A stretch of DNA of 36,900 bases, taken from assembly GCA_050185455.1 (NCBI GenBank), contig JBFWZL010000001.1, forward strand, positions 1 to 36,900. The letters are read 5' to 3'. Of this stretch, positions 11,390 to 33,592 are shown in pieces (position 1 is the stretch's first letter; every line of letters starts with the position of its first letter). The position numbers and the translations under genes were made by a program. The notes beneath the pieces were generated by a model, which was not told where the DNA came from, did not search any database, and saw only the letters and a list, made by a program, of their open reading frames with translations. The DNA is from Candidatus Binatia bacterium (GTDB taxonomy: Bacteria > Desulfobacterota > Binatia > Bin18).

Positions 11390-11443
11390 GTAGACCCCTA
11401 CCACTGATTTCTGCTGGTGATTTGGGAAAAAGGAGGTTCTGCA

Positions 11444-12034
11444 ATGGTAACTACCCTCCTCGGCATTTCTGGGAGCCTAACGAAAGGCGGGAGTACCCGC
11501 ACCTTAATTGATGCTGTCTTGCAGGCCGCCAAAGAACGGTACCCGGATATTACTACCACCGTCCTGGACCTCCGTGAGGTCCAGATTGCATTTTGTGATG
11601 GTCGGCCGCTGCACGAATATGGTGATGACACGCCACAGGTTGTGGCGCGCATTCAGGCCGCGGATGCCTATGTGATTGGTACGCCCATCTACCGCGGCTC
11701 GTACACGGGCGCGCTCAAGAACTTGTTGGACCACGTGCCGGTGGAAGCGATGATAGGCAAGGTCGCCGGACTGATCGCCACCGGCGCCACTGACCATCAC
11801 TACCTCAGCATCGATCAAGAACTGCGACCGATCCTGATGTGGTTCAATATGCATCTTGTGCCGGGCAGCGTGTATGCGCGCGGCAATCAACTCCAAGGCA
11901 GCGAGATTATAGACGAGCAACTGCGCGCGCATTTGCAAGCGCTCGGAGAGGCCGTGATCGACTTGCAGCAACTTCTTCAAGGCGGGCTGCAAGGACCCCC
12001 ACCGCTGAGCCTATGGGGAAGAAAAAGAGCGTAA
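11444..12034 (+). CDS. NAD(P)H-dependent FMN reductase (SsuE/MsuE-like)
   Basis: 'LLGISGSLTKGGSTRTL' and 'AYVIGTPIYRGSYTGALKNLLDHVP' are FMN_red-family hallmarks. AGGAGG sits 7 nt before ATG 11444. It lies directly upstream of an FMNH2-dependent monooxygenase. Confidence 0.85.
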   Translation: MVTTLLGISGSLTKGGSTRTLIDAVLQAAKERYPDITTTVLDLREVQIAFCDGRPLHEYGDDTPQVVARIQAADAYVIGTPIYRGSYTGALKNLLDHVPVEAMIGKVAGLIATGATDHHYLSIDQELRPILMWFNMHLVPGSVYARGNQLQGSEIIDEQLRAHLQALGEAVIDLQQLLQGGLQGPPPLSLWGRKRA

Positions 12035-12049
12035 GCCAGGGAGACAACA

Positions 12050-13354: not shown

Positions 13355-13430
13355 AAACACGACATGCCGCAATGCAATCAACAGGGTCTTTCTTCCCGAG
13401 ACAGCAATTTCCCCATGGAGGTGTGAGATC

Positions 13431-14321: not shown

Positions 14322-14393
14322 AGAGTCAAAGAGTCTAGAGTCAAAGAGACAGACCCCCAGACGCAAGAGACTCAAGCACTAAGGAGGAAAGAC

Positions 14394-15845: not shown

Positions 15846-17038
15846 GTGAGGTAGATGTGAAACGTATTGCCCTTGCGGACAACACACTACGGCTTGGGCT
15901 GTTTTACCCAAACACCCCGTCGATTCACGTGACCTCGCGCGTGGTGGCGGATATGAATCCCGATTCGATGTCTCTGGCGACACACAGGCGCATTGCCGCG
16001 GTCAGCGAAGAGATTGGCCTTGATTATGTATTTATCGCCGACCGCTGGGCGCCGTACGGTCCCGAGTCCACCGCCGCGCATCATCAGGACCCGATGCTAG
16101 CGGCGTTCATCTTGGGCGCGACGCTGATTGGGATGACCGAGCGTATCGGCATTATCACCACGCTGCACACCACCTATTTCCATCCGGCTCATCTTGCCCG
16201 TATCGGCGCGAACCTGGACACGTTGTCCGGCGGTCGCTGGGGCTGGAACATCGTGACTGGCGTCACTACCGATGAGATGGAAATCTTCGGTTACAAGGGC
16301 GGCGTGGCCCATGACCTCCGCTACGATATGGCGCGTGAGATGCTCGCGTTGATCAAAAAGATCTGGGACGGCATGCGGCGGGAAAACGCGTATGTGGACT
16401 GGCAGGGCACGCATTACACCATGCGTGGCGCGGTGGTGGGACCGGGACCGCTGCAACAGCCGTATCCGCTGCTGGTCAATGCTGGCGCGTCGGACGCGGG
16501 CCGCCGCTTCGCCGCTGAGCACTGTGATTACATCTTCCTTACCGACAGTTCACAAGAAGGGGTTCTCCGGCGTATGCAAAGCGCGCGGGAGCAGGCCGTC
16601 GCCTTTGGCCGCCCGGCGGACGCCGTGCGGTTGATGATGGCGGCGCGGGTGATCGTGCGCGACACGCAGGAAGAAGCGGATCAAGCGCGGCACTGGATTG
16701 CGAATAATGTTGATCTCCCAGCGGCGCGCAACTTTGTCGCGGCCCTCATGGGCGGGATTGAAAGCATTCGCGAAGCGTTCGGCGACCGGGATGAGGCGGA
16801 ACTTTTGCGCGTGTGGGGAGGTGCGGTAGGCGAGCACGAAGCCTATTGCTGCGGGCCGCCGGAAAAGATCGCCCGCTCGATTATCGACCTGCACCGCGAG
16901 GTCGGCTGCCAGGGATTACTCCTGACGTTTCCCTTGTGGCATGAGGATGAGATTCGCCGTTTTGGCACACAGGTGATGCCGTTACTAGCGGAGGCAGGCG
17001 TGTGGACGCACCCGAGTCAGCGGGGGTGGAATTGGTAG
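15842..17038 (+). CDS. LLM-class flavin-dependent oxidoreductase
   Basis: 398 aa. 'FIADRWAP', 'IGANLDTLSGGRWGWNIVTG' and 'VNAGASDAGRRFAAEHCDYIF' are luciferase-like monooxygenase motifs. The GTG start overlaps the upstream stop (GTGA). Confidence 0.8.
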   Translation: MSEVDVKRIALADNTLRLGLFYPNTPSIHVTSRVVADMNPDSMSLATHRRIAAVSEEIGLDYVFIADRWAPYGPESTAAHHQDPMLAAFILGATLIGMTERIGIITTLHTTYFHPAHLARIGANLDTLSGGRWGWNIVTGVTTDEMEIFGYKGGVAHDLRYDMAREMLALIKKIWDGMRRENAYVDWQGTHYTMRGAVVGPGPLQQPYPLLVNAGASDAGRRFAAEHCDYIFLTDSSQEGVLRRMQSAREQAVAFGRPADAVRLMMAARVIVRDTQEEADQARHWIANNVDLPAARNFVAALMGGIESIREAFGDRDEAELLRVWGGAVGEHEAYCCGPPEKIARSIIDLHREVGCQGLLLTFPLWHEDEIRRFGTQVMPLLAEAGVWTHPSQRGWNW

Positions 17039-18775: not shown

Positions 18776-19960
18776 ATGGCGCAGCAGAAGCAAGTAGAGA
18801 CCGAACTGGTGATGGGCTGGGAGAGCCGCAAACGGCTACAAGCAAAAGGCTTCACCAACAAAGAAGGCCAGATCTTCCGGGCCATGGCCCCGGTGCTGGA
18901 GCAGGAAGGGCTGATTACGCCGACGCCGGCATCCTATGTGGTCCAACATTTTGACGTACCCGCCGTGATGCGTCCGGAAGACTGGAAGGTGACCATTGGC
19001 GGTCACGTCAAACAGCCAGTGACGCTGACCTATAATGACCTGCGCGAGCTGCCGGGCCGCACGGTGCGCATGGTCATGGAATGCTCGGGTAACGACGCGC
19101 AATTCTTCGATGCGCAGTACGCCGAGCGCTTTATCGGCCTCATGCGCTATCTCGATCCCGATTATCAGGGGAAGCGCTGGCAGGGAGGACTCATCTCGGC
19201 GGGAGAGTTTACTGGCGTGCCGTTAGCCAGTGTGCTGGAGAGAGCCGGACTCAAACCTAATGCCGTCAATGTGCGTGTGGAGGGGACGGATCGCGGCGCG
19301 CCCGACCTGGTTATGCATGGTCTGCCGCCATCAGACACCCCGGTGCCGCCGTTTAACTATGACAAAGGTCTGCCCATGGAGAAGGCGTTGCATCCGGATA
19401 CTATTCTGGCCTGGGCGCAAAACGGCGAAGCCCTGGACCACGTTCATGGCGCGCCGGTGCGGTTGGTCGTGCCCGGCTGGCCAGGGAACTGGTCGGTGAA
19501 GTGGGTGCAACGCATCGAGGTGCTCGATCGTCCGGCGACCTGCTGGTACCAGACCGAGTACTATTACTATAGTCAGTCGCCAGACGATCCCCAGCGCGAG
19601 ATCATTACGACCCTGCCCGTCAAATCGATGGTGACCTACCCCAAAGACGACAATCCGACGCTGTCACGCGGTCGCCATGTCCTGCGAGGGTTTGCGTGGA
19701 GTGGCGCGGGGGCGATTACGCGTGTGGAAGTCAGCCTGGATGACGGTAAGACCTGGCAGGCGGCGCATCTGGAAGAGCCGCGAGAGAAATGGTTGTGGAC
19801 GCGTTGGTCGCTACCGTGGGATTTTCAAGCACCAGGGCAATACGCGATTCTGTGTCGCGCCACGGATGAAGCCGGACGGGTACAGAGCCGCGAGGCGCGG
19901 TGGAACCAGTTGCGCAAGAACTTCGATGGCATCGTGCCGGTGCAGGTGACGATCGCATAG
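18776..19960 (+). CDS. sulfite-oxidase-fold molybdopterin oxidoreductase (SUOX family), no signal peptide
   Basis: 'ITPTPASYVVQHFDVP', 'WKVTIGGHVKQPVTLTYNDLRELP', the Mo-ligand cysteine context 'VMECSGN', and a dimerisation-domain motif 'RGFAWSGAGAITRVEVSLDDGKTWQAAHL'. The N-terminus is hydrophilic, with no Sec or Tat signal, and there is no heme domain. Confidence 0.85.
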   Translation: MAQQKQVETELVMGWESRKRLQAKGFTNKEGQIFRAMAPVLEQEGLITPTPASYVVQHFDVPAVMRPEDWKVTIGGHVKQPVTLTYNDLRELPGRTVRMVMECSGNDAQFFDAQYAERFIGLMRYLDPDYQGKRWQGGLISAGEFTGVPLASVLERAGLKPNAVNVRVEGTDRGAPDLVMHGLPPSDTPVPPFNYDKGLPMEKALHPDTILAWAQNGEALDHVHGAPVRLVVPGWPGNWSVKWVQRIEVLDRPATCWYQTEYYYYSQSPDDPQREIITTLPVKSMVTYPKDDNPTLSRGRHVLRGFAWSGAGAITRVEVSLDDGKTWQAAHLEEPREKWLWTRWSLPWDFQAPGQYAILCRATDEAGRVQSREARWNQLRKNFDGIVPVQVTIA

Positions 19961-19984: not shown

Positions 19985-20863
19985 ATGTTCGATCTCAATA
20001 CCCTTCCGCAACTGATTCGCCGCGACATTGAGCACGGTGAAAGCAATTTCCCTACTATTCCCGATGACGTACCTGCCGTGGTGGAAATCGACCCAAGCTG
20101 GAAGCGGCAGTGGCTAGCCGCGCGGGCTCGGGTGCGGCAGGAGGGGCCGACCTATGAGGGCTTGGACGCCAAACGTCAACGGTACTTCGCCCGCTACCTG
20201 GCCGTGGTCGGTTTAGCCGAGCTGGAAATGATCGTCCTGGGCTGCACCTACGCCGCCACGCACTACGAAATGCCGGCGGCCTGGCGCACCTGCCTGATCA
20301 AACAGGCGTATGAGGACATGCAACACGCGGCCAGCTACATCACCCGCGGCTGCAAACTGAGCGGGGAGAACTATTGGAACGGCATCGCGGACGTGCCCTA
20401 TCGTGAGAATATCGCTAAGACATACCATCCCATCTTGCGGCGCGACCTCGGCGGGTTTTTCGCCGCGATTGGTCTGCATACCGAAGCCTATCCGGCGGAG
20501 ACCAACATCTTAGAGCCCTTTGCGTTGGACCCGGTGTTGGTGCGCTGGATGCCCAATGAGATTCAAGAGGAAGCTGGGCATCTGACGTTTCTCTATCCGG
20601 CGATGCGCGAGTATGTACACAGCGGCACGCCAGAGGAACAGGACCGGCGCAATCGACAAATGGTGGCGGACAATGAAACGCTGCTGGAAACGGCGATGGA
20701 GGCCAACCGCCGCAATGCTGAGACCTTTGTGGTGGGCAAGCTGGGCATGGACCCGGCAGTGATGGAAGCGTTCGCGCATATTCCTGAGCGTACGCGTTAT
20801 ATCTTCCAGACTATCGGTATCGAAGAGAGTTACTGGCCGCGGTATCTGAAAAAGAGCGATTAG
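19985..20863 (+). CDS. uncharacterised ferritin-like diiron-pattern protein (paralog of 13431)
   Basis: 292 aa, roughly half the residues identical to 13431-14321 by eye. Shared blocks include GCTYAAT.Y.MPAAWRTC.IKQAY.DMQHA, ILRRDLGGF..AIGLHTEAYPA, EI..EA.HLTFL, PEEQDRR.RQMV.DNE and IGIEESYWP.YLK. It starts 24 nt after the SUOX-like gene. Confidence 0.6.
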   Translation: MFDLNTLPQLIRRDIEHGESNFPTIPDDVPAVVEIDPSWKRQWLAARARVRQEGPTYEGLDAKRQRYFARYLAVVGLAELEMIVLGCTYAATHYEMPAAWRTCLIKQAYEDMQHAASYITRGCKLSGENYWNGIADVPYRENIAKTYHPILRRDLGGFFAAIGLHTEAYPAETNILEPFALDPVLVRWMPNEIQEEAGHLTFLYPAMREYVHSGTPEEQDRRNRQMVADNETLLETAMEANRRNAETFVVGKLGMDPAVMEAFAHIPERTRYIFQTIGIEESYWPRYLKKSD

Positions 20864-20988: not shown

Positions 20989-22686
20989 ATGGCGACCATG
21001 ATTAGCGCGCAGGCGCTCAAGACACTTATGGAGAGTGACGCATTGTATGCCGTGCTCGATGTGCGTGACTGGGGTGAGTTTACGCTGGGGCAGATTCCCG
21101 AGACGCTCTCCCTGCCGCGCGGACATCTGGAAAAATACATTGCCGTGCTGGTCCCTAAGAAAGACAGCCACGTCATTCTCTACTGTGACGCTGGCCAACG
21201 CTCAGCTCGCGCTGCCGCGACGCTAGAGTCGCTTGGCTATACGAACGCGTCAGTCTTAGATGGCGGCCTGCGCAGTTGGAAAGCGGCCGGCTATGAGACG
21301 ATCCACGGCTGGAGTTTGCGCGGCAAGGAATATGGGGAACGGTTACAGGTGGAGGAAGACATCCCGGAGCTGACGGCGGAAGAACTCCATACCCGGCTCG
21401 CACAGGGCGAGAAGCTCTACATTCTCGACACGCGGACCGAACCTGAGTTTCTGAACTCGCATCTGCCCGGGGCGTATAGCACGCCCGGCGGCCAGCTTCC
21501 GGTCACCGTCACGGATATCGTGCGGGAGCGGAGCATTCCCATCGTGACGACCTGCGCCGGTCGCACGCGGAGCTTGCTTGGCGCTCATTTGCTGCGGCGG
21601 ATGGGATTTCCCCAGGTGTACGCGCTCAAAGGGGGCACGGGCGCGTGGCGTATCGCTGGGTATGGCGGCGAATTACAGTCAGGCCCGGGCGTCCCTGTTC
21701 CACCGATCTCGGCGGTGGGGCAGGCGGCCTGCGCCCAGTTTGCCGAACGGGTTACTACTGAAGACAGCATCCCTTTCATGTCCCCGCGTGAACTCAAAAC
21801 TCGACAGGAACAGGGGGAACTGTGCTACTTACTGGATGTGCGTCAGCTCGACGAATATCGCGTCGGTCATGTTCCCGGCGCGCGCTTCTGTCCAGGGACG
21901 CAGGCTGCGTTATTGGTCGAGTGTTTCGTTGGCGTCAAGAATGCCGCCATTGTGACGACGTGCGATAGCCGGGCGCGCGGCATTCTGGCCGCCGCTCTGT
22001 TTAAAGACATGGGCTACCCCCACGTATTCGTGCTCGACGGCGGAACGACGGCGTGGACTGCAAACGGGTTTGCGCTGGAAACGGGTGACCCGCACGAAGT
22101 CGATTATGGCCAGCCGGGTTGGCTGGCTCGACTCCTCCTCGGGCTTCCTGCCGGGGTGGAATCGCAAGCACTGCCGGTCCCCGGTTTGGCTGAGGCGCGC
22201 GCGCAGACGAATTTTATCGCTCTAGGGGCATTACAAGCTCGGCTCGCTACTGGTGAACGGTGTGCGTTACTGGATCTGCGCAGTGCTGGAGACTTCGCCA
22301 CCGCCCATATCCCTGGCGCCCGCTGGCTGTCGCGTGGGAAGTTGGATCTCGAGGTCGAGCAGGAAGCGCCGGACAAGAATGCCGAAGTAGTGCTCTATTG
22401 TCGCAAAGGCGCGGAATCCACGCTATCCATGCCAATGCTGAAAGCCTTGGGCTACCACAGCGTGTCCGTCCGTGAAGGCGGTTTCGAGGCATGGAAGGGA
22501 GCAGGGCTTCCGACCGAGCAAGGGTTAGGAGCACAAGCCGAATTTGAGGAACTGGCGATTGCGGAAGTCGGATTGCTCGGCAGTGGACCGTATGGCTACA
22601 ACAATGAACGCATGGCCAAGTATTTGAAGGATGAGGAAGAACTAGGCGCGAAGTTCCGGCGAAGGACCGAGCGACCACAGGCATAA
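20989..22686 (+). CDS. four-domain rhodanese-like sulfurtransferase
   Basis: Four tandem rhodanese modules each retain an active-site Cys loop: 'YCDAGQRS', 'TCAGRTRS', 'TCDSRARG' and 'YCRKGAES'. Each is followed by the (L/V).GG...W motif. A ~60-aa charged C-terminal tail follows. Confidence 0.85.
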   Translation: MATMISAQALKTLMESDALYAVLDVRDWGEFTLGQIPETLSLPRGHLEKYIAVLVPKKDSHVILYCDAGQRSARAAATLESLGYTNASVLDGGLRSWKAAGYETIHGWSLRGKEYGERLQVEEDIPELTAEELHTRLAQGEKLYILDTRTEPEFLNSHLPGAYSTPGGQLPVTVTDIVRERSIPIVTTCAGRTRSLLGAHLLRRMGFPQVYALKGGTGAWRIAGYGGELQSGPGVPVPPISAVGQAACAQFAERVTTEDSIPFMSPRELKTRQEQGELCYLLDVRQLDEYRVGHVPGARFCPGTQAALLVECFVGVKNAAIVTTCDSRARGILAAALFKDMGYPHVFVLDGGTTAWTANGFALETGDPHEVDYGQPGWLARLLLGLPAGVESQALPVPGLAEARAQTNFIALGALQARLATGERCALLDLRSAGDFATAHIPGARWLSRGKLDLEVEQEAPDKNAEVVLYCRKGAESTLSMPMLKALGYHSVSVREGGFEAWKGAGLPTEQGLGAQAEFEELAIAEVGLLGSGPYGYNNERMAKYLKDEEELGAKFRRRTERPQA

Positions 22687-22704: not shown

Positions 22705-24225
22705 ATGCTTCCGTGTTTTCTCGACTGCCAACCATTTAGCGTCGTTCTCGACGCGCTCCAGGACGGGGTGGCGGTCTATGATCGAGACGGTGCTCTCATT
22801 TGGATCAACAGCAAAGCTTGTCAAATCCTGGGCATGCCGAGAGAAGAGCTGCTCGGACGTAACGTGAGTGAGATCTCCACCTTACCGACCGTGCGGGCTA
22901 TCGTTGCTCCTGAACTCGCGGGTTACTCGCTCAGCGAGATCCGCGCTCGCTTTACCCGCCTCCAAGACTACACCTCGCCCGGCTACATGGTGTTTACCAA
23001 CGGCAAGCAGATGCTCTACATGGGCGCAAACGTACGTGACGAACAGGGGACGATCCAATATGCCATTGCCACCATTCGTGATGTCACCGATCTCAATGAG
23101 GCAAGAAAAAAAGTCGACGAACTGCAGAAATTGACCTCACTCTACCAGGCGCAACTGCGCACTTTGCACACCCAGGTTTTGGGGCGAGATATCGTCTACC
23201 AAGGCGAGGTCATGCGCAAAGTATTGGAGCGCACGCTGCGCCTGGCGCGCCTCGACGGCAACATCCTGCTGACCGGAGAGACTGGTGTTGGGAAAACCTT
23301 GCTGGCCCGCTACATCCATGTGATGAGCCGCCGCGCCCAGGGGCCCTTCATCCATGTGAATTGCGCCAGTTTGCCAGAGTCGCTGATTGAGGCGGAGCTG
23401 TTCGGCTATAGCGAAGGCTCCTTTACCGGCGCTTCACGCAAGGGGCGCAAAGGCGTGATCGAGATAGGGCACGGAGGAACGGTCTTTCTGGACGAGATCG
23501 GCGACATGCCGATGGCGATGCAGGCCAAGCTGCTTACGGTCTTGGAAGACAAAGTGCTGCGACGGATTGGCGGGGAGAAATGGGTCACCCTCGATGTCCG
23601 GTTTCTGGCGGCCACAAACAAGGGGCCGGACGCGTTGCTGCAGGGTAAAGTGTTGCGCGAGGATCTGTACTACCGGTTGGCGACCAACCGGATAGACATC
23701 CCGCCTTTACGGGAACGGTCGGAGGACGTTCCCAGCCTCATCGACCATGCCTTGGCCGAATTCAATGAGCAGAACGGAACCCACCTGTCCTTCCACCCCG
23801 ATCTGGTGCATCAGTTACAGGGAATGTCCTGGTCGGGCAATGTACGCGAACTGAAGAACGTGGTGTGGCAGATCGCCTCGGAGAACGAAGGGGAGGATGG
23901 AGCGGTCACGCTCCAGATGCTTCCCGCTGATTTGATGGGAGCGTTGGTGGACGCAAATGGGCTCGCTGGAATGAGTTCACAGTTTGTTATTTCCTCTGCT
24001 AGACACGACGCCGACGAGGCGCAGCGCTGGCGTGAGCTGTGTCAACAATACGCGGGGAATGTGCACGCTATCGCCGATGCGTTGGGCCTCCACAGAACCA
24101 CCGTGATCCGCAAGCTCAAGAGTTATGGGTTGCGGTATGCGCGGAAGAAGTCTGCCCGTTCGCCCCGCGCCGAGACCGCTGCATCTGCTGCAGCTCCTGT
24201 GCCCGTCAACGGACGCCATTCCTAG
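22705..24225 (+). CDS. sigma-54-dependent transcriptional activator with N-terminal PAS domain
   Basis: PAS-like N-terminus (LDALQDGVAVYDRDGALIWINSKACQILG). AAA+ core with 'GETGVGKT', a 'GSFTGA' loop (23416-23433) and 'VFLDEIGDM'. C-terminal Fis-type HTH (IADALGLHRTTVIRKLKSYGL). No receiver domain. Confidence 0.9.
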   Translation: MLPCFLDCQPFSVVLDALQDGVAVYDRDGALIWINSKACQILGMPREELLGRNVSEISTLPTVRAIVAPELAGYSLSEIRARFTRLQDYTSPGYMVFTNGKQMLYMGANVRDEQGTIQYAIATIRDVTDLNEARKKVDELQKLTSLYQAQLRTLHTQVLGRDIVYQGEVMRKVLERTLRLARLDGNILLTGETGVGKTLLARYIHVMSRRAQGPFIHVNCASLPESLIEAELFGYSEGSFTGASRKGRKGVIEIGHGGTVFLDEIGDMPMAMQAKLLTVLEDKVLRRIGGEKWVTLDVRFLAATNKGPDALLQGKVLREDLYYRLATNRIDIPPLRERSEDVPSLIDHALAEFNEQNGTHLSFHPDLVHQLQGMSWSGNVRELKNVVWQIASENEGEDGAVTLQMLPADLMGALVDANGLAGMSSQFVISSARHDADEAQRWRELCQQYAGNVHAIADALGLHRTTVIRKLKSYGLRYARKKSARSPRAETAASAAAPVPVNGRHS

Positions 24226-24277: not shown

Positions 24278-25816
24278 ATGATTGAACCAATGACGAAGGA
24301 AACGCTCCCAGCCACCTGGGCGAAAGTCATCGACCACACCAAGTGTATCGGCTGTCACGCCTGTAGCACCGCATGTAAATCGGAAAATCAGGTGCCGCTG
24401 TCAGTCAACCGCACCTACGTCAAATATGTTGATGTGGGCGTGTTCCCACACGTGCGGCGGGCGTTTCAGGTCACCCGCTGTAATCAATGCGCGGATCCAC
24501 CGTGCGTCTCCGCCTGCCCGACGGCGGCGATGTACGCCCGGCCTGACGGCATTGTCGATTTCGATAAATCCGTGTGCATCGGTTGTAAAGCCTGCATCGC
24601 GGCTTGTCCCTATGACGCGATCTTTATCAATCCGGAAGACCATGCAGCCGAGAAGTGCAACTTTTGCGCTCACCGTATCGACATCGGGCTCGAACCGGCA
24701 TGTGTGATTGTCTGTCCCACCGAGGCGATTCTCATCGGTGACCTCAACGATGCCTCCTCGAAAGTAGCGCAAGTGGTTGGCCGCACCCCGGTCACCGTGC
24801 GCCGTCCGGAAAAAGAAACGCGCCCAAAGCTGTTTTACAAAGGCGCGCACCAGGCCACGCTTGATCCGCTGGCGGCGGAACGCCCCGGAGGCGGACTGTT
24901 TCTGTGGAGCGAGCAAGGAAAGGTGTCTCACCAGGTGACCTCTGGGCATCCTGGACACCAGAATTCCTCGGCCGCGGCCATGCTCTCGTATGACGTGCCG
25001 CATCGCGCGCCGTGGGACTGGCGGCTGAGCCTGTATACGTGGACGAAAGGCATGGCTTCAGGCGCTTACCTCATCCCTGCACTGCTCGTGCTGTTTGGCC
25101 TCTTACCGACGGAGAGCCCGCTGTGGCAATGGGTCACGCCACTCGTCGCCGGGCTCTTTCTCGCGCTCACCGGCCTGATCCTCATTGCCGACCTCGATCA
25201 TCCCGAACGGTTCTATCTCATCTTCACCCGTCGGCAGTGGAAAAGTTGGTTGGTGCGTGGTGCGTTTATCATCACTGGCTACGCGCTCGTCTTGGGCCTG
25301 CACTTCCTGGCCAGCTTTTGGCACGAAGCCGGTCAACCTCTTCAGACGGCCCTGACAGCGCTGGGGCTCCCTTTAAGTGTGATGACCGCTGTCTACACGG
25401 CCTATCTCTTTGCCCAGGCGGCGGCGCGTGACCTGTGGCAGAATCCCCTCCTGCCGTTCCACTTTTTCGTGCAAGCGCTACTGGCGGGCTCGGCGGTGTT
25501 GCTGCCGTGCGCGGCGATGTTTGCGCCAGAAGCGGCGCCGCCGCTGGCGTGGCTCCTCAGCGGGATCTGCCTGTTGCATCTTCTACTGGTGTTAAGCGAA
25601 GTCACGCTGGCGCACCCAACGGCGCATGCCCGGTTGGCTGCTGAAGAAATGACGGTGGGAGCTTTCCGTCAGTACTTCCGGGCTGGAGTCGCACTGGTAG
25701 TTGTGGGCATCGCTGCCCCGTGGATCGGCATTCCGGCGGTCCTACCAGCCCTTGCCGGACTGCTCGCCCATGAACATGCCTATGTGCAGGCCGGACAGGC
25801 TGTGCCCCTCGCATAA
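24278..25816 (+). CDS. fusion of a four-cluster [4Fe-4S] ferredoxin subunit (PsrB/DmsB/SoeB-like) to an NrfD/PsrC-type membrane anchor
   Basis: The N-terminal ~190 aa carry four Cys groups: CIGCHACSTAC, CNQCADPPCVSACP, CIGCKACIAACP and CNFCAHR...ACVIVCP. The C-terminal ~290 aa hold about eight hydrophobic helices and the NrfD-type 'ADLDHPERFY' motif. No signal peptide. Confidence 0.8.
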   Translation: MIEPMTKETLPATWAKVIDHTKCIGCHACSTACKSENQVPLSVNRTYVKYVDVGVFPHVRRAFQVTRCNQCADPPCVSACPTAAMYARPDGIVDFDKSVCIGCKACIAACPYDAIFINPEDHAAEKCNFCAHRIDIGLEPACVIVCPTEAILIGDLNDASSKVAQVVGRTPVTVRRPEKETRPKLFYKGAHQATLDPLAAERPGGGLFLWSEQGKVSHQVTSGHPGHQNSSAAAMLSYDVPHRAPWDWRLSLYTWTKGMASGAYLIPALLVLFGLLPTESPLWQWVTPLVAGLFLALTGLILIADLDHPERFYLIFTRRQWKSWLVRGAFIITGYALVLGLHFLASFWHEAGQPLQTALTALGLPLSVMTAVYTAYLFAQAAARDLWQNPLLPFHFFVQALLAGSAVLLPCAAMFAPEAAPPLAWLLSGICLLHLLLVLSEVTLAHPTAHARLAAEEMTVGAFRQYFRAGVALVVVGIAAPWIGIPAVLPALAGLLAHEHAYVQAGQAVPLA

Positions 25817-25836
25817 TGATGAGAAGGAGGAAGAGC

Positions 25837-28752
25837 ATGAGTGTGACAAAGCGTGATGAGCAGGTGGGGGTGACACAGCAGGAAACTGAAGCGCGCAAGG
25901 AAACCTTCTATCAAGGGCCGAGCCATATTCATCTGGCGGCGTTTCCCCCTAAAGAGCGGTGGGATGACTGGGCGGAACTGGACTCACGGGCGTGGCCGCA
26001 ACGGGTCGAGCACCATTATATGTTGACGCCGACGACGTGCTTCAACTGTGAGTCCGCGTGTGGGCTGCTCGCCTACGTGGAGAGAGAGACGCTTGCCATT
26101 AGAAAATTTGAGGGCAATCCTGAACATCCGGGATCACGCGGTCGTAATTGCGCCAAGGGACCGGCTACGCTGAATCAAGTGACCGATCCGGATCGGATTC
26201 TGTACCCGCTCAAACGCGCCGGCAAACGTGGGGAAGGCAAGTGGCAGCGCGTCTCCTGGGATGAGGCGCTTGATGACATCGCTGGACGGGTCCGCCGAGC
26301 CCTTCAGGAGCGTCGGCACAACGAGATTATGTATCACGTCGGACGGCCAGGCGAGGATGGGTACACCGAGCGCGTACTGGCCGCCTGGGGAATTGATGGT
26401 CACAACTCGCATACCAACATCTGTTCGTCGAGCGGTCGCGCGGGGTATCAGTATTGGATGGGGCTTGACCGGCCCAGTCCCGACCATGCGAATGCGGAAG
26501 TGATCCTGCTCATCAGCGCTCACCTGGAATCGGGTCATTATTTCAACCCCCATGCGCAACGCATCATGGAGGGCAAAGGGCAGGGTGCGAAGCTGATCGT
26601 GTTCGATGTCCGCCTCTCCAACAGCGCCACCCACGCCGATTACTGGGTAGCGCCGTACCCAGGGACGGAAGCCGCGATCCTCTTGGCCATCGCGAACTAT
26701 GTGATTCAGCACGACCTCTATAACCGCGACTTCATCCGCCGCTGGTGGAACTGGCAGGAATACCTGCGCGTCGAGTATCCCGACCTTGCCCCGACGTTCG
26801 AGGGCTTCGAGGGCATCCTCAAACAGTTATACACGGATTACACCTTTGACTTCGCCGCGCGGGAGGCTGGGATCGAAGTGAAGACGCTTGAGGAGATCGC
26901 CCGCCTGGTGGCGACCGCGGGGACACGGCTCTCGACCCACACCTGGCGGAGCGCCACTGCCGGGAATCTCGGCGGCTGGCAGATTTCACGCTCGCTCTTT
27001 CTGCTCAACACGCTGCTTGGCGCCGTCGCCACCGAAGGCGGCGTGTATCCCAACGCCTGGAACAAATTCGTCCCGCGGCCAATCTATACTCCTCCACATC
27101 CACACGTGTGGAACGCGCTCACGTGGCCCACTGAGTACCCGCTGGCCATGAATGAACTCTCGTTCCTCTTGCCGCACTTCTTGAAGGAAGGCCGCGGCAA
27201 ACTCAATGTGTACTTCACTCGTGTGTATAACCCGGTGTGGACGAATCCCGACGGCTTTACCTGGATCGACGTGCTGAGCGACGAAGCGCTCGTCGGCCTG
27301 CACGTCGCGCTCACGCCCACCTGGAGTGAGACGGCCTATTTCGCGGATTACATTCTTCCCATGGGTCTGGGCAACGAACGGCATGACATCCATTCCTATG
27401 AAACCCATGACGCGCAGTGGCTCGGCTTCCGCCAACCCGTACTACGCGCCGCCCGTGAACGTCTGGGGGAGACGATCACTGATACCCGTCAAGTCAATCC
27501 TGGTGAAGTGTGGGAAGAGAACGAATTCTGGATCGAGCTGTCCTGGCGCATTGATCCAGATGGCGCGCTCGGCATCCGCAAGTTCTTCGAGTCGCAGCAG
27601 CGGCCCGGCGAGAAACTCACCGTCGATGAGTATTACGGTCATATTTTTGCCAACTCAGTCCCGGGTCTGCCGGAACGCGCGGCGGCCGAGGGCCTCTCTC
27701 CGCTGGCCTACATGCGTCGCTACGGCGCCTTCGAGGTCCAGAAGAACATCGGTCCCCTGCACGAACAGGAAGTTCCTGGAGAGGAATTAGTAGACTGCCG
27801 GACCGACGAGATTGGACGCATGTTCACGCGCGCTCCCAAACCCGCAAGTCCCAATATCGTTCCCCTCCCGACTCCGGACGGGGACGCCGAGGGGCGGCGG
27901 TTAGTGGGGGTGGAAGTAGACGGCAAGATTCTGCGCGGGTTTCCCACGCCGAGTGGGCGGCTCGAATTCTACTCTCAGACCTTGAAAGATTGGGGGTGGC
28001 CGGACTACATAGTGCCCACCTACATCCAAAGCCATATCCATCCAGAACGACTGGACAAAGACCAGATGGTGTTGATTCCCACGTTCCGCTTGCCCGTGCA
28101 GATTCACACGCGCAGCGCCAACGCCAAATGGCTGGACGAGATTGCCCACACCAATCCGTTGTGGATCAACACCAAGGATGCGGCGCGCATCGGCGTGCGC
28201 ACTGGCGATTTGACGCGAGTGGAAACCGAGATCGGGTATTTCGTTGTGAAGGCGTGGGTGACCGAAGGCATCCGGCCCGGCGTGGTTGGATGCAGCCATC
28301 ATATGGGCCGCTGGAAACTCTCCAATGACGGACAACGGCAAATGATGGCGACGGTTGGACTTGATCGTCAGGGCAGTCACTGGACACTGAGCCGTAAGAA
28401 AGGAGTCGAAGCTTTTGCGAGCGCCGATGCCGACAGCCAACGTATTTGGTGGACCGACGCGGGCGTGCACCAAAACCTGACGTTCCCCGTACATCCCGAT
28501 CCCATTTCCGGCATGCACTGCTGGCATCAGGCCGTGCGCGTTACCCGGGCGCGGGTGGACGATCGCTACGGGGACATTCACGTGGATACCGAGAAGTCGC
28601 ATGCCGCCTACAAACACTGGCTAGAGCGCACGCGCCCGGCCGAACAGTTCTCTCCCGATGGGACGCGCCGCCCTTACTGGCTGCTCCGCCCGCTAAAACC
28701 GGCCCGCGCCGTCTATCGGCTGCCACAAGCAGAAGACGGAAAAGGGGAATAA
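25837..28752 (+). CDS. molybdopterin (bis-MGD, DMSO-reductase superfamily) oxidoreductase catalytic subunit, Tat-less
   Basis: ~971 aa. The N-terminal FS0 motif 'CFNCESACGLL...NCAKG' is C-x2-C-x3-C-xn-C. Length and layout are typical of Psr/Phs/Ttr/Soe-type A subunits. ATG 25837 follows AAGGAGG. There is no twin-arginine signal with a hydrophobic core. Confidence 0.85.
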   Translation: MSVTKRDEQVGVTQQETEARKETFYQGPSHIHLAAFPPKERWDDWAELDSRAWPQRVEHHYMLTPTTCFNCESACGLLAYVERETLAIRKFEGNPEHPGSRGRNCAKGPATLNQVTDPDRILYPLKRAGKRGEGKWQRVSWDEALDDIAGRVRRALQERRHNEIMYHVGRPGEDGYTERVLAAWGIDGHNSHTNICSSSGRAGYQYWMGLDRPSPDHANAEVILLISAHLESGHYFNPHAQRIMEGKGQGAKLIVFDVRLSNSATHADYWVAPYPGTEAAILLAIANYVIQHDLYNRDFIRRWWNWQEYLRVEYPDLAPTFEGFEGILKQLYTDYTFDFAAREAGIEVKTLEEIARLVATAGTRLSTHTWRSATAGNLGGWQISRSLFLLNTLLGAVATEGGVYPNAWNKFVPRPIYTPPHPHVWNALTWPTEYPLAMNELSFLLPHFLKEGRGKLNVYFTRVYNPVWTNPDGFTWIDVLSDEALVGLHVALTPTWSETAYFADYILPMGLGNERHDIHSYETHDAQWLGFRQPVLRAARERLGETITDTRQVNPGEVWEENEFWIELSWRIDPDGALGIRKFFESQQRPGEKLTVDEYYGHIFANSVPGLPERAAAEGLSPLAYMRRYGAFEVQKNIGPLHEQEVPGEELVDCRTDEIGRMFTRAPKPASPNIVPLPTPDGDAEGRRLVGVEVDGKILRGFPTPSGRLEFYSQTLKDWGWPDYIVPTYIQSHIHPERLDKDQMVLIPTFRLPVQIHTRSANAKWLDEIAHTNPLWINTKDAARIGVRTGDLTRVETEIGYFVVKAWVTEGIRPGVVGCSHHMGRWKLSNDGQRQMMATVGLDRQGSHWTLSRKKGVEAFASADADSQRIWWTDAGVHQNLTFPVHPDPISGMHCWHQAVRVTRARVDDRYGDIHVDTEKSHAAYKHWLERTRPAEQFSPDGTRRPYWLLRPLKPARAVYRLPQAEDGKGE

Positions 28753-28777: not shown

Positions 28778-30553
28778 ATGTGGTTGCTCCGGTATCTTCC
28801 ATTTCTTGATCTGGCTTCCTATCGCTTTCGTGCTTTTCGTCGAGATCTGTTAGCGAGTTCGACCGTCACGTTTCTCGATATTCCTCAAGGCGTCGCTTAT
28901 GCCATGATCGCTGGGCTTCCTCCAGCCATGGGACTCTACGCCGCCGCCGTGCCAGCGATTGTAGGGGCGCTCTTTCGTAGTTCGCGCCATGTCGTCACCG
29001 GGCCTACCAATGCCCTCAGTTTGCTAGTCGGCAGCGCGGTGGCGGGGGCGGCAGCCCATACTGGCGCTGGACCCATGGAGGTCGGCGTCACGCTGGCGTT
29101 CTTCGTTGGGCTCATGCAGTTCTTTGCCGGCCTGCTGCGGCTCGATGCCGTCGCCGATTACATTTCTCTGCCCGTCGTGCGTGGGTACATTACCGGCGCC
29201 GCCATTCTTATCGCGGTCGGCCAACTGCCGAATGTCACTGGTACGGCAGGATCGAGCGGGACTCTTGGGCCCATGCTCGTAGCCTGGAGCAGGGACTTGT
29301 CTCACCCCAACCCACTTGCCGTTACGTTTGCCTGTGGCACCGTGGTCATCGTGCTCCTCCTCCGTTGGGTCGACCGGCGCATGCCGGGTTCTCTCATTGT
29401 CATGGTGGTCAGCATTGGCGCCGATAGTATGCTGCACTTGCATGCCCACGGACTCAGGGTGGTGGCGGATATCGCGCCGATACCGGCTGGCCTGCCTCCC
29501 TTGACGGTTCCCTCCGTGCAGTACTGGGGAACGTTGGCTCCTGCCGCTCTCGCCTGCGCTGTCCTCTCACTGGTGGAGTCGAGTTCGGTGGCGCGTGCGC
29601 TCGCTGCTCGCACAGGGCAACAGCTCGATATGGCGGCGGAATTTGCAGGTCAGGGGCTGGCGAACCTGGCCGCCGCTTTTTCCGGAGGATATCCGGTGAG
29701 CGGCAGTCTCTCCCGGTCAGCGTTGAATCAACAAGCCGGAGCGGAGAGTCGGCTGTCCGCGTTGTTTTGCGGGCTACTCATGCTCGCAGTATTGCTTATT
29801 TTAGGACCAGTGGTTGGGAGAACGCCAGTAGCGAGTCTTGCCGGATTACTACTCGTGTTAGCCAATGACCTCGTCGATCGTCAGCAGATCCGGATGACGC
29901 TCCAGGGGACCATGAGTGATCGGGCGGCGTTTGTGGCGACGACCGTGGGAACCTGGGTCCTTCCGCTCGATCAAGCGATTTATTTGGGTGTGGGGATGAG
30001 CATCATCTTGTTCCTGCGGCGGGCGCGCTTGCTGACGATCCGCGAAATGACGATCAGTGAGAAACGACGGTTCCGCGAGATCGATCCCGACGCGAATGAA
30101 ACGGGGAGATCATGTTCGGCGATTCGCATCATGAACCTGACAGGGCCATTGTTTTTCGCCGCCGCGGGGGAGTTACAGTCCTTGCTCGACCGCTTCCTGA
30201 GCGACTCCAGGCTGCGGGTGCTTATCCTGCGGCTCCGACAGGCGGACGCTGTAGATGTGACGACCGCCAGTGTTCTGGAAGCAACCGCCGCCAAGCTGGC
30301 GCGGGAAGGGAAAACGCTTCTGCTCCTTGGGGTACGTCCTGCGACAATGCAGTTACTCGAGCGGACTGGTGTGGCTGAACGTCTTGGCCGAGAGCATCTC
30401 TTTCCCGCCCAAGCTGGATGGTTTACCGCCATGGAGGTGGCGCTGCGGCGAGCGCTGGCGCTGGCTGGAGCGCACGCGTGTGGAGCGACCTGCCCGTTAG
30501 CGGAGTATGTCGCTGCCCAGGAGACTTTGCGATCAGCGGTGAAAACCGCATGA
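28778..30553 (+). CDS. SulP-family anion (sulfate) permease with C-terminal STAS domain
   Basis: 'LDIPQGVAYAMIAGLPPAMGLYAA.VPAIVGALFRSSRHVVTGP' is the SulP signature region and many TM segments follow. The C-terminal STAS-like region is 'IMNLTGPLFFAAAGEL...VLILRLRQADAVDVT'. Confidence 0.9.
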   Translation: MWLLRYLPFLDLASYRFRAFRRDLLASSTVTFLDIPQGVAYAMIAGLPPAMGLYAAAVPAIVGALFRSSRHVVTGPTNALSLLVGSAVAGAAAHTGAGPMEVGVTLAFFVGLMQFFAGLLRLDAVADYISLPVVRGYITGAAILIAVGQLPNVTGTAGSSGTLGPMLVAWSRDLSHPNPLAVTFACGTVVIVLLLRWVDRRMPGSLIVMVVSIGADSMLHLHAHGLRVVADIAPIPAGLPPLTVPSVQYWGTLAPAALACAVLSLVESSSVARALAARTGQQLDMAAEFAGQGLANLAAAFSGGYPVSGSLSRSALNQQAGAESRLSALFCGLLMLAVLLILGPVVGRTPVASLAGLLLVLANDLVDRQQIRMTLQGTMSDRAAFVATTVGTWVLPLDQAIYLGVGMSIILFLRRARLLTIREMTISEKRRFREIDPDANETGRSCSAIRIMNLTGPLFFAAAGELQSLLDRFLSDSRLRVLILRLRQADAVDVTTASVLEATAAKLAREGKTLLLLGVRPATMQLLERTGVAERLGREHLFPAQAGWFTAMEVALRRALALAGAHACGATCPLAEYVAAQETLRSAVKTA

Positions 30554-30729: not shown

Positions 30730-30745
30730 CGGTACGGCTCTTGCT
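30730..30745 (+). promoter_or_regulatory. sigma-54 (RpoN) -24/-12 promoter
   Basis: CGGTACGGCTCTTGCT against the consensus TGGCACG-N4-TTGCW. GG and TTGC fall at exactly the canonical spacing. It is ~70 nt upstream of ATG 30814. Two sigma-54 activators are encoded in the window, one immediately downstream in the same transcription unit. Confidence 0.6.
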
Positions 30746-30813: not shown

Positions 30814-32130
30814 ATGCGCAAGAAGAAGATGCACTTCGCCCAGTTCCTGATGCACAGCCCCACGTACCACAGTCTGGCCATGTGGCGACATCCACATACA
30901 GAACCGCGCTACGACTGGGCACGGCCTGAGCTATACCAGCATATCGCGCAGGTCTGTGAGCGCGGCAAATTGGACATGGTCTTTTTCGCTGACGTCAGTT
31001 TCATCTCCGACACCTATACTGACTCCCTCGACCCGGCGATTCGCTACGCCACTCAGGCGCCCAACCATGACCCGACTCCTTTGCTTTCCTGGCTTGGCGC
31101 AGTGACCCGCAAGGTTGGCTTGGGCGGCACCTTCTCGATCAGCCACCAGCATCCGTTTTATGTCGCGCGTCTGTGGGCGACCTTGGATCATCTCACCCGT
31201 GGCCGGGCGGCCTGGAATGTGGTGACGTCGATCAACCACAACGAATCGGCCAATTATGGCGAAGAGTTGTTGGCGCACGACTTGCGCTACGAGCGTGCCG
31301 AGGAGTTCATGGAGGTCTGCGTCAAGCTGTGGAATAGTTGGGAGGCGGACGCGGTGGTGATGGATCGCGAGCGAGGGATCTTTGCTGACTCCGCCAAGGT
31401 GCATCGCATTGAGCATGACGGGCGCTTCTTCAAGTCCCGTGGTCCGCTGAATGTCACGCGTTCACCCCAGAACGGACCAGCGATTATCCAGGCGGGCGCG
31501 TCCGCGAAGGGGAGAGCGTTTGCCGCCAAGTACGCCGAGGCCATTTTTGCCATTCATCCCTTTGCCGAGGGTGCAGCCGAATACTATGCCGATGTCAAAG
31601 GGCGGATGGAGGATCTGGGGCGCAATCCCGATCACTGCAAGATCCTCTTTGGCGTGCAGCCGATCGTCGGACGCACGGAACAAGAGGCGCGTGAGAAGCA
31701 AGAGTTCCATAATAGTCTCGTGCCTGTGGAAGCGGGGCTGACCCTTCTCTCCGGGCACCTCGATTATGATTTTTCCCGCCTCAACCTTGATGACATGATG
31801 GAATACTCCCCTGACTTCAGTATTCAGGGGCTCAGCAAGATGTACGGCAAGATGGCGGGGCGAAAACTTACCCTGCGGGAAGTCGCGCAAATGCATGGAC
31901 AGAGCGTAAGTCTGCCCCAAATCGTGGGTACACCGGAGCAGGTGGCGGATCAACTGGAAGCCTATTGTGAGAAGGCCGGTGGCGATGGCTTCATGCTCTC
32001 GCCGATTTACACGCCGGGCGCAATCGAGGAGTTCGTGGATTTGGTCGTCCCCGTGCTTCAGAAGCGCGGGCTGTTTCGCGAGGACTACGCTGGCAGTACG
32101 CAGCGTGATCACCTGCATCAGGATGCCTGA
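30814..32130 (+). CDS. NtaA/SnaA/DszA-type LLM flavin monooxygenase (second copy)
   Basis: 438 aa, collinear with 12050-13354 (KKMH...F, 'LDHLTRGRAAWNVVTS', 'IIQAGASAKGRAFAAKYAEAIF', C-terminal 'VPVLQKRGLFREDY'). Confidence 0.85.
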   Translation: MRKKKMHFAQFLMHSPTYHSLAMWRHPHTEPRYDWARPELYQHIAQVCERGKLDMVFFADVSFISDTYTDSLDPAIRYATQAPNHDPTPLLSWLGAVTRKVGLGGTFSISHQHPFYVARLWATLDHLTRGRAAWNVVTSINHNESANYGEELLAHDLRYERAEEFMEVCVKLWNSWEADAVVMDRERGIFADSAKVHRIEHDGRFFKSRGPLNVTRSPQNGPAIIQAGASAKGRAFAAKYAEAIFAIHPFAEGAAEYYADVKGRMEDLGRNPDHCKILFGVQPIVGRTEQEAREKQEFHNSLVPVEAGLTLLSGHLDYDFSRLNLDDMMEYSPDFSIQGLSKMYGKMAGRKLTLREVAQMHGQSVSLPQIVGTPEQVADQLEAYCEKAGGDGFMLSPIYTPGAIEEFVDLVVPVLQKRGLFREDYAGSTQRDHLHQDA

Positions 32131-32143: not shown

Positions 32144-33592
32144 ATGTTGCCCTGCTTTATGGAATGTCAGCCTTTTGGTCTGATCCTCGACGCCCTGCAA
32201 GACGGGGTGACGATCTATGACCGCAACGGCGATTTGATCTGGATTAACGACAAGGCGTGCCAGATCCTGGGTCTCCTGCGCGCTGAGTTGATCGGGCGCA
32301 ATGTGAGCGAGATCGCGACCCTGCCAACCGTCCAGGCGCTCGTGACCCGAGACGCTGCTGGTCGCCCGCTCACCGCGTTGCCGACCTACAGCACGCAGAT
32401 CGAAGATTACGCCTCCCCCGGTTACATGGTCTTCACCAACGGAAAAAAACTGCTCTATATGGGGACCTACGTGCGTGATGAGGACGATGCCGTGCAGTAT
32501 GCTATCTACACCATCCGTGCAGCGACTGATCTTGACGAAGCGCGGCGGAAGATCGACGAGCTGCAAAAACTGACCACCCTCTATCAGGATCAACTGCGTA
32601 CGTTGCACCTTCAGGTCTTGGGCCAGGAGATCGTGGCGCGTAGCGAGATCATGCAAAAGGTGCTGGAGCGCGCCCTCAAATTTGCTCGTGTCGATGGCAG
32701 TGTCCTGCTCACGGGCGAGACCGGCGTGGGGAAGAACTTGCTCGCCCGTTACCTTCACGTCATGAGTCGGCGGGCGCAGGGGCCGTTCATCCATGTCAAC
32801 TGCGCTACTTTGCCGGAACCGTTGATCGAGGCGGAACTGTTTGGCTACAGCGAAGGCGCCTTCACGGATGCCGCGCGCAAGGGACGGAAAGGGGTGATCG
32901 AACTGGGGCAGGGAGGCACGGTCTTTCTTGACGAGATTGGCGATATGCCGCCCGGCATGCAGGCCAAGCTGCTCACCGTGTTGGAAGAGAAAGTCATCCG
33001 CCGTATCGGTGGTGAGAAATGGCTCCCGGTCGATGTGCGTTTCGTGGCGGCGACCAATAAACGCCCGGATACCCTCGTGCAGGGACAGAGCCTGCGAGAA
33101 GATCTCTATTATCGTTTGGCGTTGCATAAACTGCACATCCCACCCGTACGGGAACGGCCCGACGACATCCCCGAACTCATTGATTACGCGCTCACGGAGT
33201 TTAACCGGCAGAGCGAGGCGCGCTGTGCGTTTCATCCCGACTTGGTGGCGCGGCTCCAGACGTTGCCTTTTCCCGGCAACGTGCGCGAAATCAAAAACCT
33301 GGTGTGGCAGATTGCTTCCGAGTTAGGTGGGACCGGGAGCGAGATTACGTGGCAGATGCTGCCTCCCGATCTGCTCCAAACGCTGGAGTCGTCAGGCGCG
33401 TCGCTGGCTTCAGGGACACGAGTCGCTACTGTACTCGAACACTCCATCGCTGAGGCGCGGCGGTTGCGGGAACTCTGTCAGCGGCATCAGGGAGATGTGA
33501 CTGCCATAGCAAAAGCCTTGGGGGTGCATCGCACGACGGTCACCCGCCGGCTCAGCGCCTACGGTATTGTCTATACACGCAAACGGATGTAG
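32144..33592 (+). CDS. sigma-54-dependent transcriptional activator with PAS domain (paralog of 22705)
   Basis: ATG 32144 follows GAGGAGGG. The longer ORF from 31967 overlaps the monooxygenase and is rejected. The N-terminus MLPCFMECQPFGLILDALQDGVTIYDRNGDLIWINDKACQILG is nearly identical in layout to the 22705 protein. Also present: 'GETGVGKN', a variant loop 'GAFTDA' (32855-32872) and a Fis-type HTH. Confidence 0.9.
   Translation: MLPCFMECQPFGLILDALQDGVTIYDRNGDLIWINDKACQILGLLRAELIGRNVSEIATLPTVQALVTRDAAGRPLTALPTYSTQIEDYASPGYMVFTNGKKLLYMGTYVRDEDDAVQYAIYTIRAATDLDEARRKIDELQKLTTLYQDQLRTLHLQVLGQEIVARSEIMQKVLERALKFARVDGSVLLTGETGVGKNLLARYLHVMSRRAQGPFIHVNCATLPEPLIEAELFGYSEGAFTDAARKGRKGVIELGQGGTVFLDEIGDMPPGMQAKLLTVLEEKVIRRIGGEKWLPVDVRFVAATNKRPDTLVQGQSLREDLYYRLALHKLHIPPVRERPDDIPELIDYALTEFNRQSEARCAFHPDLVARLQTLPFPGNVREIKNLVWQIASELGGTGSEITWQMLPPDLLQTLESSGASLASGTRVATVLEHSIAEARRLRELCQRHQGDVTAIAKALGVHRTTVTRRLSAYGIVYTRKRM

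Follow-up and report, generated by a model that had tools for sequence, protein, structure and literature searches.

A ferredoxin-NrfD fusion and a signal-less molybdoenzyme subunit in a Candidatus Binatia contig belong to a widespread, Soe-like family

What kind of enzyme is encoded by a gene for a molybdenum (Mo) catalytic subunit that follows a gene for a ferredoxin fused to its own membrane anchor? Such a pair lies at positions 24278-28752 of contig JBFWZL010000001.1 of Candidatus Binatia bacterium (assembly GCA_050185455.1). The window analyzed here is this entire 36.9-kb contig, one of 650 in a metagenome-assembled genome (MAG) that is 91.8% complete and 5.8% contaminated. The upstream gene encodes BC, an iron-sulfur (FeS) ferredoxin and an NrfD-type anchor in one polypeptide, and the downstream gene encodes A, the catalytic subunit with a Mo-bis(pyranopterin guanine dinucleotide) (Mo-bisPGD) site (Table 1). 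A preliminary description of this DNA had identified the pair as a SoeABC-type sulfite dehydrogenase with inverted gene order. We find that the window BC-A is an ordinary member of a widespread, Soe-like family.

The architecture of a complex iron-sulfur molybdoenzyme, with a Mo subunit, a four-cluster ferredoxin and NrfD as its three modules, is borne out by Pfam and by invariant Cys residues. In BC, Pfam places Fer4_11 at residues 63-155, further Fer4 and 4Fe-4S models from residue 14, and NrfD at residues 242-481; the reading frame and these matches confirm that the B and C functions reside in one polypeptide of 512 amino acids (aa) with its Cys groups at the N-terminus. All 16 ferredoxin Cys residues (C23/26/29/33, C68/71/76/80, C100/103/106/110 and C127/130/142/146) are invariant among 50 family members, which fits four [4Fe-4S] clusters. 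The best match of the ferredoxin part in the Protein Data Bank (PDB) is PsrB (2vpw_B, E 5e-48, 46% identity), on which Foldseek also superposes the N-terminal part of BC. Some relatives contain insertions in the linker that leads to the anchor. The best NCBIfam models for BC are TtrB, NrfC and DsrO, and every equivalog scores under its cut-off.

The anchor had been described as about eight transmembrane (TM) helices with the motif DHPERF. The motif is present at BC residues 306-311, directly after TM2, and is conserved in the form DLDHPERF. The helix count depends on the method: hydropathy shows seven clear hydrophobic stretches, the last two helices not being separated, and AlphaFold2, run on a 50-sequence alignment (mean predicted local distance difference test score (pLDDT) 72.6, mostly >90 in the NrfD part), places eight helices at residues 248-272, 281-305, 324-345, 350-372, 392-415, 417-443, 464-483 and 485-508. 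Foldseek aligns the NrfD part with PsrC (2vpw_C, TM-score 0.77 on target), and the ActC fold matches too. Because of the AlphaFold2 helices and the PsrC superposition, the modeled anchor is likely a full eight-helix NrfD fold, the last hairpin being unsure (seven to eight TM helices). We note that the C-terminal tail of BC, EHAYVQAGQxVPLA (residues 499-512), is near-invariant across phyla, with E499 and Q507 invariant; the side of the membrane on which it lies hinges on whether there are seven or eight helices.

The A reading frame extends from its first ATG, the alternative start at 25816, to 28752 on the forward strand (978 aa). The sequence AGGAGG stands just before the ATG at 25837, and this second ATG is therefore the likely start, giving a protein of 971 aa. 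Pfam recognizes Molybdop_Fe4S4, Molybdopterin and Molydop_binding in A. In the family alignment three residues of the FS0 cluster (C68, C71 and C105) never vary and the fourth, C75, hardly does; C196, within HTNICSS, is likewise invariant and, standing at the Psr-type ligand position, is the putative Mo ligand. The best NCBIfam models for A are PhsA and DmsA, and the matching equivalogs (PhsA, TtrA/B, ArrA/B and others) are far under their cut-offs.

Neither protein carries a twin-arginine translocation (Tat) or Sec signal, as had been claimed, judging from the start codons, the absence of a hydrophobic h-region and the N-termini of homologues. In BC, ATG 24278 is the first start after a stop, the FeS domain begins ~13 residues on and the first Cys motif lies within ~20 residues; there is no room for an export signal because the first start codon sits so near that motif. 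Many BC homologues start M(R)YGFVIDQxxCIGCHAC. Homologues of A align from the MSVTK position. The alternative upstream start of A, the place where a Tat signal might have been overlooked, yields none: the long form, MMRRRKSMSVTKRDEQ..., has arginines and no hydrophobic h-region, and the same is seen in its fuller N-terminus, MMRRRKSMSVTKRDEQVGVTQQETEARKE, in which arginines are present and the hydrophobic core is absent. The combination of an RRxFLK motif and an h-region is absent from both A and BC.

Which face of the membrane does the ferredoxin occupy? With loops delimited by the AlphaFold2 helix boundaries, Lys and Arg average 8.1 in the ferredoxin-side loops versus 0.24 on the opposite side, and the same inequality occurs in 50 of 50 sequences. 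The DLDHPERF segment falls on the ferredoxin side. Because the loop charges favor the ferredoxin side as the inner one under the positive-inside rule, we predict a cytoplasmic position for the ferredoxin and for the anchor face that bears the quinone site (DLDHPERF), in mirror image to PsrABC. The charge counts thus agree with the earlier suggestion of a ferredoxin tethered to the cytoplasmic side by the fusion. Canonical NrfD proteins have their FeS subunit and quinone site on the P-side, and an inverted orientation has been proposed for SoeC (PMC8076601); the idea that the BC fusion fixes an inverted arrangement of this kind holds.

Is the fusion genuine, and is it peculiar to this genome? 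Our survey of A used one genome per GTDB species and detected relatives in at least 589 species from ~10 phyla and the haloarchaea; the best 80 loci, which served for all layout and neighbor counts, span Acidobacteriota, Gemmatimonadota, Actinomycetota (including a Mycobacterium isolate), Chloroflexota, Planctomycetota, Bacteroidota and Binatia. In 71 of the 80 loci, A is preceded on its own strand by a single-frame match to BC residues ~14-512. BC usually adjoins A; it is 0.6-2.4 kb away in Pyrinomonadaceae and 3.2 kb upstream in locus L032, and locus L086 has a partial BC upstream. Altogether BC precedes A in 73 of the 76 informative loci, four being too short to judge, and it was not found within the locus in L035, L041 and L067. 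Similarly, in a sample of an entire high-GC class, which we take to be Gemmatimonadota, A is present in 170 of 401 genomes at E<=1e-30, nearly all of these matches being ~60-75% identical or contig-end family fragments, and BC lies upstream in 30 of 30 loci examined, short flanks clipping the N-terminal end of some matches. More than 7,900 homologues of BC and 8,000 of A, of similar length, came up in a database search. Identity to the window protein is 68-91% among the best 120 BC homologues and 74-94% among the best 120 A homologues, and these top homologues carry generic names only, in MAGs labelled Acidobacteriota, Binatia, Thermodesulfobacteriota and Armatimonadota. The single-frame matches in both samples and the abundance of homologues of similar length rule out a missed stop or frameshift as the source of the fusion, and the same fusion is found in other genomes, two points that the preliminary description had singled out for checking. 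The BC-A order is indeed present here, but it cannot be called an inversion or a peculiarity of SoeABC in this genome, being the standard layout of the family.

The family is patchily distributed among the relatives of this MAG, where BC occurs in 13 of 30 genomes, including two of five of the same genus; across Binatia, A occurs in 97 of 300 genomes. Annotated plasmids with BC followed by A are found in Thermomicrobium roseum, Rhodococcus jostii RHA1 (pRHL3) and Natrinema halophilum, and A together with NrfD-part matches occurs on other haloarchaeal plasmids (Natrinema, Halomarina and Halomicrococcus). Searching plasmids by tblastn with A and the NrfD part returned only family members and the Sulfurovum and Azoarcus enzymes discussed below. 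Between phyla, A subunits share 60-80% identity, and phyla are intermingled in the tree of A, with Natrinema beside Bacteroidota and Mycobacterium beside Acidimicrobiaceae and Gemmatimonadales, a pattern compatible with horizontal transfer. Taken at the level of sequence, the BC-A family is very large, highly conserved and horizontally mobile, with the fusion and the BC-then-A order as its standard layout.

One member departs from this layout. Locus L151 (7001-11472) has separate B (238 aa) and C (264 aa) genes 33 bp apart, the result of a stop and restart in the linker; its B part is ~80% identical to the ferredoxin part of the window, and it looks like a genuinely unfused variant inside the family. 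A search for unfused relatives that used just the ferredoxin part as query recovered nothing but fragments of genes belonging to this family. We rejected L150 as a second split BC, the contig being a frameshift-ridden long-read assembly. We likewise rejected a triple BC-A fusion suggested by long open frames in high-GC genomes, BC and A being in different frames in most loci, and set aside the weaker matches in the class sample as contig-end family fragments or ~800-aa Psr-like proteins that are not Soe-sized. Two database labels look wrong or coarse: L023 (CAZBUD010000057.1), labelled Enterobacteriaceae, comes from a genome that shares its class with a Binatia genome, and L049 (JAPPHB010000002.1), labelled Gammaproteobacteria, comes from a genome of the high-GC class described above, 42% of whose sampled genomes carry the family.

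Sulfur-handling genes accompany many members. Within 6 kb of A, the 80 loci contain persulfide dioxygenase (PDO)-rhodanese genes in 28 cases, SulP in 18, TusA in 10 and DsrE in 10, and at least one sulfur-handling gene is present in 41. A TorD/NarJ-type chaperone gene lies within the same distance in 39 loci; in the MAG studied here, no TorD-like chaperone homologue was detected in the whole genome (tblastn, E<1e-8). For example, the order on Rhodococcus jostii pRHL3 is DsrE-TusA-BC-A-Mrp, beside metallo-beta-lactamase (MBL) hydrolases, thioredoxin and ArsR regulators; a gene for a CsoR-like regulator is directly upstream of BC-A in Thermomicrobium roseum; and the L151 cluster reads DsrE-PDO-TusA-B-C-A-SulP. 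The bona fide soeABC of Acidithiobacillus caldus adjoins rhd-tusA-dsrE-hdr (PMC6335251).

In the window, BC and A belong to a same-strand string with short gaps that comprises genes for a SUOX-family protein, a 292-aa protein, a four-domain rhodanese, a PAS-sigma-54 activator, BC, A and SulP/STAS (Table 1). Scans for sigma-54 and sigma-70 promoters and for terminators did no better than chance, so the claim to operon boundaries is limited to the short same-strand gaps. An organosulfur island (8707-17038 and 30814-32130) surrounds the string. It encodes four luciferase-like monooxygenases, of which two pass the NtaA/DmoA model and the others resemble SfnG and SsuD, together with an FMN reductase (11417-12034), an acyl-CoA-dehydrogenase-like protein (9876-11123) and an amidohydrolase. 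Monooxygenases of the SsuD, SfnG and MsuD families release sulfite in the cytoplasm. A second BC-A module lies on another contig of the MAG (C263, 9 kb), in the order YeeE-like, MBL-fold dioxygenase (PDO), BC, A and SulP; its A, BC and SulP are 82%, 78% and 71% identical to the window copies, and it represents either a true paralogue or a mixture of strains within the MAG.

Table 1. Coordinates of the BC-A genes, their domains and neighboring genes in the window
Feature	Coordinates	Strand	Remarks and basis
Fused FeS-NrfD subunit BC	24278..25816	+	512 aa, no signal peptide; open reading frame, Pfam, same-length homologues
Four-cluster ferredoxin domain of BC (residues 1-200), predicted cytoplasmic	24278..24877	+	16 invariant Cys; PsrB match
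Linker of BC, ~47 residues, ferredoxin to TM1; low confidence, variable	24878..25018	+	AlphaFold2 pLDDT <50, residues 201-246
NrfD/PsrC-type quinone-interacting membrane domain of BC (residues 248-508)	25019..25801	+	Pfam NrfD, AlphaFold2, Foldseek, positive-inside count
Mo-bisPGD catalytic subunit A	25837..28752	+	971 aa, 110.8 kDa, FS0 cluster, Cys196 putative Mo ligand, no Tat signal
SulP/STAS anion transporter, candidate sulfate exit	28778..30553	+	Pfam, NCBIfam; co-duplicated with BC-A on contig C263
Four-domain rhodanese, upstream of BC	20989..22686	+	565 aa; Pfam Rhodanese x4
PAS + sigma-54 activator + HTH_8, directly upstream of BC	22705..24225	+	52-nt gap to BC; Pfam, NCBIfam
SUOX-family Mo enzyme, no signal peptide	18776..19960	+	Pfam Oxidored_molyb + Mo-co_dimer
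NtaA/DmoA-family FMN monooxygenase, likely cytoplasmic sulfite source	30814..32130	+	TIGR03860, 501 bits vs cut-off 280

Several other features of the window deserve mention. The SUOX-family protein looks like a second, soluble, apparently cytoplasmic sulfite-oxidase-like protein of the same gene string; it scores below the cut-offs of the SoxC, SorA and SorT models, and paralogues are encoded on contigs C370 (49% identical) and C533. A second PAS-sigma-54 activator gene (~32144-33592), 65% identical to the first, follows the last monooxygenase gene, and a weak sigma-54-like site (30730-30745), of a kind that occurs at chance frequency, lies ahead of that monooxygenase gene. Two conserved-looking open reading frames in the sulfur string, 19985-20863 (292 aa) and 13431-14321 (296 aa), have no Pfam match, and the former has no NCBIfam match either.

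We propose, by analogy, that the two polypeptides BC and A make up a complex iron-sulfur molybdoenzyme that faces the cytoplasm, is coupled to quinone and probably oxidizes sulfite, working like SoeABC. The substrate would be sulfite made in the cytoplasm, supplied in the window by FMNH2-dependent organosulfur monooxygenases and rhodanese-handled sulfane sulfur, and in many other genomes by persulfide dioxygenase. Sulfite would be converted to sulfate at the Mo site of A, electrons would run from FS0 along the four BC clusters and reach quinone at a site close to the cytoplasmic face of the membrane, and sulfate would leave via SulP, which the proposal takes to be co-transcribed. We favor cytoplasmic sulfite oxidation because sulfite is the simplest common denominator of the sulfur-handling neighbors, and these neighbors make the Soe-like job foreseen in the preliminary description plausible.

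A number of observations weigh against this proposal. Searchable literature yielded no biochemical or genetic data for any BC-A family member. About half of the 80 loci are without a sulfur gene within 6 kb of A, and in the window the SUOX-family protein of the same cluster could already serve sulfite oxidation. The closest full-length outgroups of A are mostly Tat-exported. The closest solved structures to the complex, PsrABC and ArrAB, are those of reductases. Finally, the Aquifex enzyme is a sulfur reductase (bSreA) in one study (PMC10100899) and SoeABC in another (PMC8076601), so direction and substrate are not readable from sequence.

Could BC-A then work in the opposite direction, as a quinol-dependent, Psr/bSre-like reductase that faces the cytoplasm, acts on sulfane sulfur, polysulfide, thiosulfate or tetrathionate, is fed by rhodanese, TusA or DsrE and releases sulfide or thiosulfate? 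Besides the solved structures, this reading could invoke the cytoplasmic Aquifex enzyme, which clusters with SoeA where it is classed as bSreA (PMC10100899), the sulfur-carrier neighbors in several loci, and a protein in the next clade out of the A tree that the Joint Genome Institute (JGI) names thiosulfate/polysulfide reductase chain A. We nevertheless consider it improbable, since the commonest pairing of the family is with an O2-dependent persulfide dioxygenase, whose product is sulfite, and SulP, and since the window BC-A stands among sulfite-releasing monooxygenases. The hosts speak against it as well: going by their labels (Acidobacteriota, Gemmatimonadota, Actinomycetota, Thermomicrobium and haloarchaea), they are mainly aerobic heterotrophs. 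A substrate other than inorganic sulfur, either organosulfur (dimethyl sulfoxide (DMSO), dimethyl sulfone (DMSO2) or methanesulfinate) or an oxyanion such as arsenite or selenite, seems to us very improbable. The window is rich in homologues of monooxygenases of the dimethyl sulfide (DMS)/DMSO2 type, and ArsR-type regulators occur near some copies, but the organosulfur surroundings are peculiar to this window and not conserved, and the ArsR and CsoR regulators sit with persulfide dioxygenases and may be better understood as persulfide sensors. Moreover, the high identity of A across phyla with very different neighborhoods argues for one common, simple substrate.

A closer rival to sulfite oxidation by a distinct family is that BC-A is a true SoeABC orthologue that arose by fusion of soeB to soeC together with a change in gene order. 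The modules, the lack of signals and the predicted orientation are the same as those proposed for SoeABC (PMC8076601), and unfused B and C genes exist inside the family in L151. The bSreA/SoeA lineage is also large and conserved, mostly collapsing at 50% identity, with five archaeal hits (PMC10100899), and the conservation of the BC-A family and its few haloarchaeal members resemble it. The size of A fits too (110.8 kDa). In the 2013 work of Dahl and colleagues, SoeA is reported to be of ~109 kDa. The claim that three modules without a Tat signal define SoeABC goes too far, since such features alone do not define it.

To place A among its relatives, we searched 1.84 billion cluster representatives and then built a tree. 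In it the Tat-less family is a clade with 95% support in the Shimodaira-Hasegawa-like approximate likelihood ratio test (SH-aLRT); the Tat-less P0298 nests inside it, as judged from the A subunit only, the fusion aside. The family and two small sister groups make up a group with 100% support. The sister groups contain the Tat-bearing P0303 and P0363 (~1115 aa), the Tat-bearing P0320, two divergent Tat-less proteins and a Sulfurovum mangrovi plasmid enzyme. The next clade out is uniformly Tat-bearing and includes the JGI-named thiosulfate/polysulfide reductase chain A and an Azoarcus KH32C plasmid enzyme. No Tat-less, Soe-sized cluster appears outside the family among the best 150 of the 50%-identity representatives, and cluster look-ups of the nearest 50%-identity representatives returned no Soe name; SoeA itself has no PDB entry and no NCBIfam model. 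JGI gives the family COG-type names only, whereas a neighboring Psr-like protein receives a KEGG Orthology (KO)-type name. Likewise, a Bohai Sea study reports SoeABC as 'not detected', yet its Gemmatimonadota MAGs (L058, L065, L080 and L085), which we tied to the study by the station codes M3, M8 and BHB10, carry the family. These observations suggest that standard annotation does not call the BC-A family SoeABC. The evidence on kinship with SoeA is mixed, and with the JGI naming, the Bohai Sea non-detection and the lack of an outside Soe-sized cluster it leans against simple orthology, which we regard as rather unlikely.

Sulfite is toxic, and cells produce it internally whenever they break down persulfides, thiosulfate or organosulfonates; to our knowledge, the enzyme that removes it is often unassigned outside Proteobacteria, Chlorobi and Aquificae. 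We raise, tentatively, the possibility that the principal cytoplasmic sulfite:quinone oxidoreductase in aerobic heterotrophs from soil, sediment and sponges and in haloarchaea is the BC-A family and not classical SoeABC, and that the family forms its own clade apart from SoeA and is systematically missed by surveys based on KO and hidden Markov models. If this is true, the direct oxidation of sulfite that has been reported as 'missing' from such communities is an annotation gap, and sulfur-cycle gene surveys would have to be reinterpreted, the gap being filled by a family found in a third or more of the sampled genomes of Binatia and of a second, high-GC class and also in many Acidobacteriota, Actinomycetota and Chloroflexota. 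The ferredoxin-NrfD fusion offers a clean natural test case for an NrfD module that is flipped in the membrane with its quinone site on the N-side, and the BC-A family is itself a worthwhile bench target.

How does BC-A compare with the known systems built from the same modules? PsrABC of Thermus thermophilus (PDB 2vpw-2vpz) is the best solved match for all three, PsrA matching the N-terminal third of A with an E value of 6e-34. However, PsrA is Tat-exported and has 765 aa, whereas A has 971 aa and no signal; PsrB and PsrC are separate chains; and the hydrophilic module of PsrABC lies on the opposite membrane face. BC-A thus lacks the twin-arginine leader and the periplasmic A and B subunits that mark the Psr, Phs, Ttr and Arr enzymes. 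The Tat-dependent sisters and the Sulfurovum enzyme resemble BC-A in their 34-48% identity, the HTNIC motif, an RYPPFE.W N-terminal region and B-C-A gene order, but P0303, P0363 and P0320 have twin-arginine leaders and are hence periplasmic. The Sulfurovum mangrovi plasmid locus (L005, 5090-10175) is Tat-less and has separate B, C and A genes followed by genes for TorD and a further 4Fe-4S protein; its A gene is split by a frameshift in the assembly and groups with the ~1115-aa Tat-bearing proteins. Alternative complex III (ActB/ActC) also has a fusion within the A/B/C modules and an NrfD-type anchor, and the ActC fold match noted above belongs here. In that complex, however, the A-like module is fused to B and the Mo cofactor is lost, while BC-A joins B to C and retains intact Mo-binding and FS0 motifs, so that no cofactor-less MopB-like domain joined to an FeS subunit is present. 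SoeABC (Allochromatium vinosum, Ruegeria pomeroyi and Aquifex aeolicus; EC 1.8.5.6) shares several features with BC-A: a Mo-bisPGD subunit of ~110 kDa with FS0 and a Cys ligand, a four-cluster ferredoxin, a haem-less NrfD anchor and no Tat signal. Its active and quinone sites are predicted to be cytoplasmic, with an inverted anchor (PMC8076601), and it keeps genomic company with rhodanese, TusA and DsrE (PMC6335251), as BC-A keeps company with sulfur systems. The two differ in that SoeABC is encoded by three genes in the order soeA-soeB-soeC, whereas BC is a single polypeptide encoded ahead of A, with a shorter anchor part (~30 kDa) and, often, an adjacent gene for a TorD-like chaperone.

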